From assembly GCA_963924565.1 (NCBI GenBank), contig OZ004607.1:29140001-29204000 (forward strand): a stretch of 64,000 nucleotides of DNA, read 5' to 3'. Shown here piece by piece: positions 52,901-56,288 of this stretch (its first letter is position 1; every line of letters starts with the position of its first letter). Both the position numbers and the translations under genes were made by a program. The notes below the pieces were generated by a model, which was not told where the DNA came from, did no database searches, and saw nothing but the letters and a program-made list of their open reading frames with translations. Source of the stretch: Ascidiella aspersa. Lineage: Eukaryota.

Positions 52901-55900
52901 CACACCAGTACCATCCAGTGGAACACCAGTTGCATCCAGCGGCACACCAGTGCCATCCAGCGGCACACCAGTTGCATCCAGCGGCACATCAGTACCATCC
53001 AGTGGCACACCAGTGACGTCCACCGGCACACCAGTACCATCCAGCGGAACACCAGTTACACCCAGTGGCACACCAGGACCATCCAGCGGCACAGCAGTTG
53101 CATCTAGCGGCACACCAGTACCATCCAGCGGAACACCAGTTGCATCCACCAGCACATCAGTACCATCCACCGGCACATCAGTACCATCCAGCGGCACACC
53201 AGTTGCATCCAGCGGCACATCAGTACCATCCAGCGGAACACCAGTTGCATCCACCAGCACATCAGTACAATCAACCGGCACATCAGTACCATCCAGCGGC
53301 ACACCAGTTGCATCCAGCGGCACATCAGTACCATCCAGTGGCGCACCAGTGCCGTCAACCGGCACGCCAGTACCGTCCAGCGGAACACCAGTTGCATCCA
53401 GCGGCACACCAGTTGCATCCAGCGGCACACCAATACCATTCAGCAGCACACCAGTTGCATCCAGCGGTCCATCAGTACCATCCAGTGACACACCAGTGCC
53501 GTCCACCGGAACACCAGTACCATCCACCGGCACACCAGTTGCATCCAGCGGCACACCAGTGCCGTCCACCGGCACATCAGTACCATCCAGCGGAACACCA
53601 GTTGCATCCAGTGGCACACCAGTACCATCCAGCGGAACACCAGTTGCATCCAGTGGCAAACCAGTACCATCCAGCGGAACACCAGTTGCATCAAGTGGCA
53701 CACCAGTACCATCCAGCGGAACACCAGTTACATCCAGTGGCACACCAGTTGCATCCAGCGGAACACCAGTTGCATCCAGTGGCACACCAGTACAATCCAG
53801 CGGAACACCAGTGCCATCCAGCGGAACACCTGTTGCATCCAGCGGCACACCAGTACCATCCAGTGGCACACCAGTGCCGTCCACCGGCACACCAGTACGA
53901 TCCAGCGGCTCACCAGTTGACTCCACAGCGTCGTCAATTCCCTTGTCCTCAACCACAGTTGCAGTTAATCCCACGTCGGTTAGCGAACAAACAGAAACGA
54001 CAACGGTTACAACGCCAATATCAGTGACAACTTACATGGTAGACAGCACGCCAGAAACACTTGCTACAACTCAAGTAACCTCACCTAGCATAGACGCAAG
54101 CGTTGCAACGCATGTTTCCACAACAATGCAGGCTACACAAGCCGAAACAACTCCTGATGCTAATGCCGCAACACACACCCGTTCTTCGACGACTGCAACC
54201 CAAGTAGTCACAGTTACGACAGTGGCAGCCGGGACCACCCCCGAGACCCAGCCACCTACCACTGCTCCCCCCAAACCGTTGCAAACGGAAGTGATGAACA
54301 TAGCTCCTGACACTGTTTGCGTAAAAGTTAAGCACGAGTCGGTAAGTTGCTGTGTTTATAAAAATATATGAGAAATTATAACTGGCAACAGCATTACAGC
54401 CACATATATATAAAATTGCGATTTTGCCGGATAAAACACCTAGTAAAAACTATGTTCGCTTATTTCAAGAATGTGGATGCTTACCTTATCTCAATTGACC
54501 AATCGTCACAACCTTCGGATCAAGGATTTTCAGAGAACTTTGCAGAAGTCAAGGCCATGTATCCCAATACATATAAGTGTTTCTTTGACACTATACCGGG
54601 TAAGTCGTGCTAACATTTTAGGGTATGGGGTAAAGTAATTGTGCGCCATGAATTTTATCAAAACATCAACAAATTAGATTTAATAAAGCAAACTGTATTA
54701 AAATATCTATTTTTCCTAATTTATCCATGTTTTGACATTTTTCTCCGAACAATCTCCAGTTTTTATATTCTTTAGATCAAAAGTACGTTGCCACAGTGAT
54801 TCCTAAAGAGAAGGGTACGACGGCCGGAAAGCCCAAAGATATCAACTTCACCACTGAGAGTACGAACAAAACTTGCTATACTGCTACTGTTTTATATTTG
54901 ACATAATGCTATTCAATCGTTAACTCGAGGTTTAAGTGACTAAGGTGCAATTTGTATTAGTTATGAATTATTACACCAATATTCATATGCGTTTCTAAAT
55001 TGATGGAATACCTAATATGCATTTAGGTAATCCGCCACCAACTGCAACACCTTCCAGCTACAAACAAACCAACGAAACGAAAAAGTGGCAAAAGGATTAT
55101 AACCAGTGGAAGTAAGAAATCTAAACATTATAAATTCAGTATAACAACACAAAAGCCTATATAAGTTAAAGCGAGCAATTACCTTAGTACTATAGTTTTA
55201 TATGGCGTCAAAAATAACCCATATATAGTCCTCTAGTTTAATCCCCATTTGCCTGTTACTTCCGCGGTTCATCATACTTATATCAAATATTCCCGTTTAT
55301 AAGTCAGCGAAAATCCAACGAAAATTATTTGGCGATATTATGTAAACTGCTCTTGAGAAAAATTTAAATGAATCGATTTTAAATATTAGGAAATCGAATG
55401 TGTTTTTGGCGTAGCTATATTCTCCGGCTGTCCCTATGTTTTTCGGATCTGAATTTATAGCTGTTATTTTTTGCGCAGAAACGACACAGTCAACAAATGG
55501 TTCAAGATGGCGTCGGACTACATGAACGCATTTGGATCCAAACTGCCCGGAATCACGCCGGATCCTGAGCAATGCCCGCAACCTTATAAGCCAACGTGCA
55601 GTGTTACGCCGAGGCCGTTCGTCGACTACAACGGTTGCCTGTTTTTGATTTGCGACTCGCCTAAGCAAGGTAAGGATGTTTTGCGTTGGATTTTCAAAGC
55701 TAACGTGTGCAACGTTAAAAGCAAAGCTAGAAGGAGTTAGAATATTTTTTGATTTTTTTGAGAAAAAATGAGTGAAACTGTACTTAAAGCGCCATCGAGA
55801 AAAAAATAGACATGTTACAAATGTAAGTTGTAGAATGTTTTAGCATAACGGAGCACAGTATGAAACATGTATTTTTTCTCTCGATAATTATTCATTTTTT

Positions 55901-56288
55901 GTTTGAATTTTACTAGAGTGGCACATTTCAATTAAACTCGTCTTTGTAAAAATTAAACTTTGTAAAATAAAAGAGGCGCGTCGGCAGACATTTTCGCGTA
56001 ACAGGATTTATGCGTCACTGACGTACAGTCTTGCTTTGGTAACACATATAACCGAAACCTAACAAGACTTTATTTTACCTATACAAATGTTATAACTTGC
56101 TTGTCAACTGATTAGGCAAAGTGTTTGAAAATCCACATACCGGTGTTTTTTTACCTATAGGAGATTTCACGCCGAGCGACGTGGCTAACTGGGAAAAGGA
56201 GTACGCCACCTACACGGAATACCTGCTGCCGCAATGGCAGAAGCTACTCGCTTCATATTCGGAAGCCTACAGCAACAATAACCCGTAA
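10799..56288 (+). CDS. Giant secreted mosaic mucin/proteoglycan (~4,986 aa, 54 coding exons): SP-CUB-MAM-LDLa-TIL-FN3-FN3-TIL-FN3-LDLa2-TIL-FN3-[LDLa2-Thr]x3-TY4-PT mucin-TY6-CUB-TIL-FN3-S/T mucin-FN3-novel C-terminal domain
   Basis: Manually spliced exons, all GT-AG with compatible phases, total 14,961 nt ending in TAA: 10799-10904, 12675-12817, 13901-14055, 14492-14619, 16084-16188, 16939-17022, 17493-17674, 18457-18550, 19884-20018, 20883-21111, 21739-21968, 22401-22526, 22929-23162, 23543-23647, 24316-24565, 25681-25916, 26574-26696, 27181-27303, 27438-27545, 28068-28362, 28850-29073, 29715-29894, 30226-30333, 30617-30727, 31070-31177, 31541-31693, 31997-32107, 32445-32552, 33344-33496, 33799-33909, 34247-34354, 35148-35285, 36401-36619, 37315-37533, 38173-38385, 38583-38789, 39159-40793, 41739-41963, 42562-42783, 43299-43535, 44587-44817, 45831-46049, 46507-46675, 47322-47512, 48023-48161, 48526-48613, 48768-49188, 49332-49421, 49528-54341, 54470-54599, 54776-54859, 55027-55111, 55479-55669, 56161-56288. 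Confidence 0.85.
12576..12615 (+). ncRNA. Degenerate minimal type I hammerhead ribozyme (Penelope-like element remnant), copy 1
   Basis: TTTGAC-CTGATGA-A-ACACggttGTGC-AAAA-GCTT-GTCGAG. Stem I pairs, but the core GAAA is mutated to AAAA. Part of a ~95-bp repeat also found at 27585-27685. Confidence 0.6.
12675..14619 (+). CDS. Exons 2-4: CUB domain 1
   Basis: [33 protein letters not shown]...[16 protein letters not shown]...YCGN...[19 protein letters not shown], followed by the start of MAM (INCDFE). Confidence 0.9.
15506..15987. mobile_element. Degenerate MITE with GACTT/AAGTC subterminal repeats (related fragments at ~11750-11890, ~20113-20230, ~48255-48330)
   Basis: CAGTGTTG...CAACACTA ends with repeated GACTTGAC motifs. 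The same AAGTCAAGTC motif recurs in the other fragments. Confidence 0.5.
16084..18550 (+). CDS. Exons 5-8: MAM domain
   Basis: [34 protein letters not shown]...[10 protein letters not shown]...[11 protein letters not shown]...[20 protein letters not shown] are the canonical MAM motifs. Confidence 0.95.
19018..19331. mobile_element. hAT-type MITE (same family as 24700-25035)
   Basis: TIR AGGGGTTCTTAAAC / GTTTAAGAACCCCTG; 8-bp TSD GTTTAGCA/GTTCAGCA. The interior aligns with 24700-25035. Confidence 0.8.
19884..30333 (+). CDS. Exons 9-23: LDLa x3, TIL x3 and FN3 x4 with Thr-rich linkers
   Basis: LDLa: [36 protein letters not shown]. 10-Cys [61 protein letters not shown]3: VSF..V..A.SY.I....V.FSGL.PE..YSVQIF. 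Confidence 0.88.
24700..25035. mobile_element. hAT-type MITE
   Basis: TIR CAGCGGTTCTTCAAC / GTTAAGGAACCCCTG; perfect 8-bp TSD CTTTAAAC. Confidence 0.85.
27585..27685 (+). mobile_element. Short retroposed insertion carrying a minimal type I hammerhead ribozyme (27601-27640), copy 2
   Basis: TTTGAC-CTGATGA-A-GCACgtttGTCC-GAAA-GCTT-GTGAAG, flanked by the 14-bp direct repeat TTTACAATAAATGA (27571-27584, 27686-27699). Confidence 0.75.
30617..35285 (+). CDS. Exons 24-32: three copies of LDLa-LDLa-Thr-rich linker
   Basis: C..(D/N)[29 protein letters not shown] / [34 protein letters not shown] / [17 protein letters not shown]..., each present three times. Confidence 0.9.
32880..33220. mobile_element. 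MITE with AGAGATGTCCGA/TCGGACATCTCT ends, duplicated with the segment (also ~34682-35023; only the right half at ~31260-31416)
   Basis: Inverted ends flanked by TA, with internal ATCGG/CCGAT repeats. Confidence 0.65.
35973..36073 (+). pseudogene. Truncated pseudo-exon copy of the first thyroglobulin-1 exon
   Basis: Aligns with 36332-36435 including the acceptor TGTGCAG|CCACAC. Cys TGC has become TGA, and similarity stops after ~11 codons. Confidence 0.8.
36401..46049 (+). CDS. Exons 33-42: ten thyroglobulin type-1 repeats interrupted by a ~470-aa Pro/Thr/Glu mucin stretch
   Basis: Each phase-1 exon reads LT.CQ.....P.C...G.(Y/F)...QC......C(W/R/A/N)CV...G..IPG.......(D/N)C. The mucin stretch lies in exon 39159-40793. 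Confidence 0.93.
37838..38094. mobile_element. hAT-type MITE
   Basis: TIR CAGGGCCGGATT / AATCCGGCACTG; 8-bp TSD CACAGGAC/CATAGGAC. Confidence 0.8.
41236..41541 (-). repeat. Cluster of tRNA-like (SINE-type) units: two tandem on the minus strand, one partial on the plus strand
   Basis: Minus strand GTAGCTCAGTT(G/A)GCAGAGCGA.GGTCCCGGTA.G.CC.GAGGT..G.GTTC(G/C)AACC carries A- and B-boxes, at ~41261-41331 and ~41397-41471. The partial plus-strand copy is at ~41496-41541. Confidence 0.7.
43611..44076. mobile_element. hAT (Charlie-like) MITE
   Basis: TIR CAGTGGTTCTCAACC / GGTTGAGAACCACTG; 8-bp TSD CTTTAAAG/CTTTAGAG. Confidence 0.88.
46507..49421 (+). CDS. Exons 43-48: divergent CUB domain 2, 8-Cys TIL, EGSG/Ser-rich linker, FN3
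   Basis: [31 protein letters not shown]...; [68 protein letters not shown]...[13 protein letters not shown]. Confidence 0.82.
49528..54341 (+). CDS. Exon 49: 4.8-kb Ser/Thr/Pro mucin exon
   Basis: Matches the 1601-aa ORF in the track. Acceptor CTTGCAG ends at 49527; donor GTAAGT at 54342. The exon ends with the start of the last FN3. Confidence 0.92.
50080..53920 (+). repeat. Coding 21-bp minisatellite: heptads SSTDAPV, then SSGTPV(P/A)
   Basis: TCATCAACTGACGCACCAGTG units at ~50080-51050, degenerate heptads up to ~52370, then homogeneous TCCAGCGGCACACCAGT(ACCA/TGCA) units at ~52370-53920. Confidence 0.95.
54470..56288 (+). CDS. Exons 50-54: last FN3 and an unrecognised Trp/Tyr-rich C-terminal domain
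   Basis: NVDAYLISI...[20 protein letters not shown]...INFTT, then [27 protein letters not shown] - 4-Cys loop - [32 protein letters not shown]. Confidence 0.8.

Follow-up and report, generated by a model that had tools for sequence, protein, structure and literature searches.

The tail, its exons, and its relatives

The 64,000-nucleotide stretch of Ascidiella aspersa contig OZ004607.1 analyzed here (the window, whose own coordinates are used throughout) carries on its plus strand a large gene, the product of which closes with a tail of 134 amino acids. Joining 55027-55111, 55479-55669, and 56161-56288 in frame across GT..AG introns yields this tail, which holds 4 Cys, 5 Trp, 10 Tyr, and 5 Phe (20/134 residues are aromatic). 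Tail exon 1 (55027..55111) encodes a Pro/Thr spacer and the first part of a predicted aromatic helix, helix 1, with its first Trp codon at 55086; tail exon 2 (55479..55669) encodes the remainder of helix 1 (to 55533), a Pro-rich return strand, and a four-Cys loop with a predicted beta-hairpin; and the terminal exon (56161..56288) encodes a second predicted aromatic helix, helix 2, and the stop codon TAA (56286-56288). An FN3-like domain of three exons (54288..54859) directly precedes the tail, and the 3' untranslated region runs from 56289 to at least 56900, to which contig 13 of sequencing run X3 extends from the last exon. We conclude that the tail is a real, undescribed domain family on an uncharacterized tunicate mosaic glycoprotein. 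On the best reading of its structure models, and by analogy with the WAT helices of cholinesterases and the polyproline strand (PRAD) that they wrap, it would be an undescribed WAT/PRAD-like noncovalent assembly module.

Splicing was checked from 54000 onward. All five GT-AG joints predicted from 54341 to 56161, including those of the FN3-like domain and of tail exon 1, were present in the assembled contigs of X3, which reaches a depth of ~34 on the exons versus 0 to 5 on the introns of this region. There is no record of the type of this run, and we infer from its depth and joints that it is RNA. The DNA-like run X1 had none of the predicted joints, and its reads pass straight through the introns. 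The RNA run X4, of which 6% was read, gave five reads, mostly in the 3' untranslated region; the few at 56231-56618 have their first mate on the minus strand. An earlier, sequence-only reading of this DNA had staked its proposal on these exons being part of the gene, and it is within the gene that the X3 contigs place them.

That reading had also described two 27-residue segments aligning without gaps around a four-Cys loop, and both features were recovered. Segment 1 (55086-55533, spanning an intron) and segment 2 (56190-56270) are identical at 7/27 residues, and the best ungapped self-match of the tail, with a score of 56, was equalled by only 2/3000 shuffles. Across species, a profile-profile comparison of the two repeats gave P=1.3e-4 and a probability of 54%. 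A phase-2 intron interrupts repeat 1 but not repeat 2, so that they are not the product of a recent exon duplication. The motif originally written for both, W-x-K-[DE]-Y-x2-[WY]-x7-W-x-K-x4-Y-x2-A-[FY], proved partly species specific: its K and A positions are not invariant among five sequences, in which the fixed positions read W-x3-Y-x2-W-x3-T-x-N-x-W-x6-Y in helix 1 and Y-L-x-P-x-W-x2-L-x3-Y in helix 2. The loop itself lies at 55573-55653 with the spacing C-x7/8-C-x12-C-x4-C; its four Cys, two Pro, D, N, L, and F are invariant in 14/14 rows, near-duplicates among them. Every complete tail counted (n=4) has four Cys, and this even number leaves no obvious free thiol for interchain bonds of the cystine knot type.

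A search of 1.84 billion representative proteins with tail exon 2 returned nine matches at E<=0.001. Six of these are real; the remaining three (P0005, P0006, and P0009) are chance matches to repeats or bacterial proteins without the Cys pattern. The named relatives, LOC143446068 of Clavelina lepadiformis (P0003) and LOC113474589 of Ciona intestinalis, are both uncharacterized, and the others are metagenome records. All named carriers are therefore ascidians, and more distant ones may exist at the search depth used. A profile search, which covered proteins of up to 2000 amino acids, added one further fragment (P0029), and a word-index search with tail exon 2 gave no match. Of four loci returned by a metagenome scan, two are real and share the same six exons, with the same intron positions at the tail sites read; in one of them (L012), the counterpart of tail exon 1 ends at the same phase-2 intron. 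The other two loci (L014 and L015) are chance 13-residue matches inside stop-rich frames, and a scan with P0008 as the query found none among 74 stretches. Within its own genome the tail is apparently single copy: only the window locus was found, although such counts are lower bounds, and a candidate paralogue (L011) was rejected at E 4.9.

In the window, P0003, P0004, P0008, P0024, and L012, the tail forms the extreme C terminus and an FN3-like domain precedes it, an arrangement that holds in all orthologues reaching that far; P0024 has several FN3 domains ahead of it, with a Pfam fn3 match at the cutoff. Five tails are 29% to 56% identical in pairs and share 25 invariant columns, mostly aromatic, Cys, and Pro. 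The window tail is 49% identical to that of Clavelina and 44% identical to that of Ciona, and the metagenome proteins P0008, P0024, P0007, and P0029 form a divergent branch, 29% to 35% identical to the others. Conservation of the tail (34% to 48%) equals or exceeds that of the last FN3-like domain, which is 31% to 43% identical to its counterparts in P0003, P0004, P0008, and P0024. Residue-changing alleles were seen in X1/X3 at 55610 (P>L), 55616 (P>Q), 56281 (N>S), 54265 (A>V), and 54528 (F>Y); none of these five sites affects an invariant tail column.

In agreement with the sequence-only reading, which recognized no family here, no Pfam family scored above the cutoff on the tail or on the tails of its relatives, and none was assigned to any of six window exons. 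Sequence searches of the PDB returned only LILRB1 for tail exon 2 (E 0.12) and Pry1 for tail exon 3 (E 1.6), and those with alignment profiles A1 and A3 gave 0 rows, the HMMER filters discarding weak matches. Literature searches by gene and protein identifiers returned no paper, and those by domain terms and by AChE_tetra, the Pfam name of the WAT helix, listed none on this protein.

Predicted fold

Using alignment A1 (10 rows), AlphaFold2 modeled the Clavelina tail with a mean predicted local distance difference test score (pLDDT) of 87.8 and a predicted template modeling score (pTM) of 0.77. The model runs from a helix (residues 7 to 38) through a Pro-rich strand and a beta-hairpin (64 to 67 and 73 to 76) to a second helix (88 to 123), the two helices being amphipathic and 32 to 36 residues long. 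A linker-only model (pTM 0.47) keeps the hairpin and a bridge that links Cys 2 with the residue following Cys 4. The Cys 2 bridge, present in both models, fits a pairing of Cys 1 with 3 and 2 with 4, and we infer that these two disulfides probably form within the chain.

The sequence-only reading had pictured a helical hairpin, and here the models point elsewhere. The complete tail model has lone bridges at residues 2, 59, 80, and 87, of which the pair 59/80 is also present when the linker is modeled alone; with 59 and 80 paired, the bridges at 2 and 87, both of them helix starts, lie at one end. The model also matches the antiparallel three-helix bundle 9rgv over its whole length (chain -2..95; 85 residues aligned, Z 6.1, root mean square deviation 2.9). 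Because 85 aligned residues exceed the 68 that are helical, helices 1 and 2 would take the first and third places of that bundle, which are parallel. Taken together, the helix starts at one end and the full-length bundle match suggest that the two helices are parallel and that the linker appears to return between them. Strand bridges and bundle-match ranges thus speak against a hairpin, and the rest of the earlier description, aromatic helices (as predicted) around a four-Cys loop in a spliced and conserved C-terminal module, is borne out.

Structure comparisons returned no known domain. Foldseek found nothing for the tail model at E<=0.001 in the PDB (best E 0.99) or in BFVD (best E 0.37), VIA-align gave generic helical bundles at best (Z 6.5, with none of 48161 chains at Z>=8), and the best hit of a second structural comparison had a Z of 2.6. 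The linker-only model had no Foldseek match (best E 2.1) and none of 48161 chains at Z>=2. In the ESM Atlas the best scores, 0.84 (SPASM, exon 2) and 0.78 (globin), were both below the lead threshold, with structure rows at TM<=0.50. A confident match to a known domain, which would have told against novelty in the sequence-only reading, was accordingly not found in the Pfam, PDB sequence, or Foldseek searches; blank structure searches do not in themselves establish a new fold. Likenesses to class I viral fusion hairpins and to antistasin were considered and dropped, given the parallel topology, the four Cys, and the absence of a significant fold match.

The host gene and its surroundings

Upstream exons were assigned to the same gene because their order is collinear with Clavelina P0003. 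All lie on the plus strand, with domains called by Pfam on window frames. The likely first coding exon (10799..10904) encodes what looks by eye like a signal peptide. An N-terminal mosaic (12581..34452) follows, with CUB, MAM, 9 LDLa, 3 TIL, and at least 4 FN3-like exons. Ten thyroglobulin type 1 (Tg1) repeat exons and a 582-residue Thr/Ser/Pro-rich frame (39143-40888) occupy 36295..46123, with PF00086 above the cutoff in 10/10 Tg1 frames. Next come a second CUB, one TIL, and one FN3-like exon (46461-49208), an open frame of ~1620 residues (1619) with 21/42-nucleotide tandem repeats (49485..54341), and the last FN3-like domain. The two Pro/Thr/Ser-rich (PTS) frames, of 582 and 1619 residues, consist of 43% Ser plus Thr and 13% Pro. 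In total the protein has 2 CUB, 1 MAM, 9 LDLa, 4 TIL, at least 6 FN3-like, and 10 Tg1 domains besides its two PTS frames, from which we estimate a length of ~4500 residues or more. Judged from this composition, it is likely a large, secreted, mucin-like mosaic protein.

Both named relatives are orthologues. The Clavelina protein (1507 residues, one Tg1 repeat) has the same tail, the same preceding FN3-like domain, and the same domain order; compared with it, the window gene has expanded its LDLa (9), Tg1 (10), and PTS regions and has one MAM domain against two in Clavelina. Only FN3-like domains and the tail make up the Ciona model (576 residues), which may be partial; the last of these FN3-like domains corresponds to that of the window. 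The tail is a marker for a family of orthologous tunicate genes in which the repeats have undergone strong expansion between species.

Several other features were noted. At 30500-34450, a ~1.8-kb block with LDLa exons and Thr-rich exons occurs twice in nearly the same letters, with near-identical translations in frames 31540/33343 and 32420/34222; either the gene has recently undergone an internal tandem duplication or the assembly has duplicated the block. By eye, several window Tg1 repeats carry a Q-C-x-G-F motif, as do those of Styela ScTG-like. On the minus strand, 1088-6211 holds exons of a leucine-rich-repeat protein gene (frame 6211-5945 resembles SDS22-type repeats by eye), transposon-like frames lie near 3470-4520, and a neighboring gene on the plus strand (60860-61534) shows a 225-residue Lys/Ser-rich open frame.

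A putative assembly module and its known counterparts

We propose, at a probability of about 0.5, that the tail consists of two parallel Trp/Tyr helices on an antiparallel Pro-rich strand and joins chains tail to tail noncovalently. In the predicted order, helix 1 would be followed by the Pro-rich return strand, the beta-hairpin, and helix 2; two intrachain disulfides (Cys 1-3 and 2-4) would staple the strand to the hairpin, and aromatic side chains would stack on the strand prolines as WAT helices do on a PRAD. Two helices would leave such a bundle half open, so that two tails could pair into a four-helix assembly. Pairing of this kind would polymerize or cluster the glycoprotein in mucus or tunic, as the cystine knot does in gel mucins. 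Oligomerization was among the functions suggested by the sequence-only reading as well.

The WAT likeness, which the sequence-only reading did not mention, emerged from several comparisons. On helix 2, Pfam gave no row but AChE_tetra (PF08674) for Clavelina (E 0.51) and for Ciona (E 0.56), and among PDB sequences a helix-2 profile matched the acetylcholinesterase T peptide with an E value of 1.8. The best tail scores on PF08674, 10.6 and 10.4 bits, lie below the cutoff of 25 bits, which the genome's own WAT peptide (L003:1471-1602, minus strand, from the cholinesterase T exon) exceeds with 50.5 bits. On the helix-1 profile, this same peptide scored 11.6 bits (P 9e-6, or ~0.2 after correction for the size of Pfam), more than any helix-2 repeat, and it scored 18.8 bits against Clavelina helix 1. 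Only 2/4000 generic aromatic-face helices and 28/4000 with permuted aromatics reached 11.6 bits. The L003 T exon product also has a Cys near its C terminus.

A number of points weigh against this reading. With aromatics held fixed, 220/4000 null sequences reach the WAT score, which makes the signal mostly one of aromatic spacing, and every WAT score is below significance for a lead that was chosen after the search. AChE_tetra appears on 1/9 members and 1/7 family sequences and on none of the window's own exons, and in the helix-2 PDB search an unrelated beta-sandwich adhesin (E 0.19) ranks above acetylcholinesterase. The hydrophobic period is 3.67 to 3.75 in the tail versus 3.5 in WAT; the Trp spacing is 7 then 8, versus 7 and 7, so that the alignment needs a one-residue gap; and the linker prolines are spaced, whereas a PRAD has them in runs of 3 and 5. 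Moreover, the topology comes from a secondary-structure line and alignment ranges rather than from coordinates, the model is that of the Clavelina tail (49% identical) rather than of the window's own, and the Ciona fragment is poorly modeled in the Atlas (pTM 0.31). Finally, that the monomer is modeled with confidence may indicate aromatics that are buried already and need no partner.

A fuller version, which we regard as tentative and rather unlikely, would make the tail a single-chain WAT-PRAD hybrid, in which a duplicated T-peptide-related helix is fused around its own disulfide-stapled Pro strand and two tails form a four-helix ring that polymerizes the host. It is unlikely, in turn, that the tail, as a monomeric domain or a WAT-like catcher, anchors the host by binding another protein, such as a collagen or matrix protein with a polyproline segment. 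In its favor, the native WAT ligand sits on another chain, ColQ, PRiMA, and lamellipodin being the examples given in PMC5943944, and the host, with only four runs of 3 or 4 Pro, all within one frame, has no true PRAD of its own. In the model, however, the tail's own Pro-rich strand appears to fill the third bundle place, and the helix period departs from that of WAT.

It is distinctly unlikely that surface Trp and Tyr bind the cellulose or chitin of tunic, feeding net, or gut membrane. Aromatic residues do stack on sugars, and the tail is rich in them, but the conserved ones lie on one helical face with a period of ~3.7, as expected of a packing face, and the modules known to bind cellulose or chitin are for the most part beta-sheet platforms. 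Tunicate gut membranes are described as chitin framed and as containing mucin-type proteins (PMC6109156). Polysaccharide binding, one of the functions floated by the sequence-only reading, nonetheless drew no support from any analysis run. Insertion of the amphipathic aromatic helices into lipid or air-water interfaces, tethering the protein to membranes or particles, seems very unlikely. Two such helices of this length and the absence of a transmembrane stretch in the tail sequence would suit it, and the WAT peptide is itself termed amphiphilic in PMC5943944. Free lipid-binding helices are hard to reconcile with the invariant disulfide hairpin and the well-packed model, which speak for a folded domain, and the net charge varies from -5 to +4 among orthologues.

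That the Tyr-rich tail serves as a peroxidase substrate (for iodination, thyroid hormone, or dityrosine) on a thyroglobulin-like scaffold is very unlikely as well: of Tyr motifs, the window tail has five D/E-Y, one S-Y-S, and one E-x-Y, but these are not conserved, Clavelina and Ciona having one D/E-Y each and no S/T-Y-S.

Little is known, at the level of domains, about how tunicates polymerize the glycoproteins of their feeding mucus and tunic, and the tail, a conserved and unannotated module of 134 residues, can be expressed alone. A single-chain WAT/PRAD arrangement, if true, would for the first time take this assembly mode beyond the cholinesterases and would give tunicates a substitute for the cystine knot; it would also be a case of exon reuse among chordates and could supply a compact tag for self-assembly. 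Should the WAT link fail, the tail would still merit a new domain family.

Among known systems, the Kazal domain (PF00050) shares the C-P-x2-Y-x-P-x-C spacing of the four-Cys loop but matched in Ciona only, at E 0.0047 and 17.4 bits, under the cutoff of 21. Unlike Kazal domains, with six Cys in three disulfides, the tail has four Cys, a beta-strand predicted in place of the Kazal helix, and, in three of its species, a Pro where the P1' residue would be.

Vertebrate thyroglobulin and Styela ScTG-like resemble the host in their large size and 9 to 11 Tg1 repeats. A size above 2000 residues and five or more Tg1 repeats are part of the ascidian thyroglobulin-like signature given in PMC12992692; the window gene passes this filter with its ten Tg1 frames and estimated length, which is what might speak for a peroxidase substrate, whereas Clavelina falls short of it, so that the Tg1 expansion is not common to both. 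The host further differs in its N terminus (ScTG-like, in the first 400 of its 5790 residues, starts with Cys-rich repeats and not CUB-MAM), in having no ChEL domain, and in its disulfide-containing tail, the C-terminal region of ScTG-like being described there as disulfide free.

Gel-forming mucins (MUC2/5/6/19 and Ci-GFM1) are, like the host, very large and likely secreted, with long PTS regions, TIL domains, and a small conserved Cys-containing C-terminal module. The sequence-only reading had set the tail where these mucins have their cystine knot, and the comparison holds for position only. No VWD, C8, or cystine knot was found by Pfam in the 100 window frames scanned, which cover part of the gene's frames, or in full-length Clavelina P0003, nor was any VWC or VWD-C8-TIL unit found. 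By the definition in PMC4948705, three or more VWD-C8-TIL units, it is therefore mucin-like and not a gel-forming mucin. Unlike a cystine knot, the tail is predicted to be mainly helical, with four Cys likely paired within the chain.

The closest counterpart is the WAT helix (PF08674, PDB 1VZJ). Its known complex has a polyproline II strand with Pro runs of 3 and 5 enclosed by four WAT helices, which are parallel to one another and antiparallel to the strand (PMC1285061) and which tetramerize their proteins (PMC1285061; bioRxiv 10.1101/431288), an assembly mode described as unique to cholinesterases (bioRxiv 10.1101/431288). WAT and the tail, as predicted, are both C-terminal amphipathic aromatic helices of secreted chordate proteins and share the pattern W-x3-[FY]-x2-W...W-x3-[FL]-x2-Y; in both, as in the genome's own T exon, the last exon follows a phase-1 intron and has its first Trp 9 to 10 residues in. 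Unlike WAT, the tail has two helices per chain rather than one, an additional residue separating its second aromatic anchor from the third, a four-Cys hairpin, and a Pro strand in the same chain without Pro runs, and it follows an FN3-like domain in a protein with no cholinesterase domain. The tail thus falls outside PF08674, yet parallel helices beside an antiparallel Pro-rich strand, as read from its bridges and alignment ranges, would give it the same geometry within a single chain.

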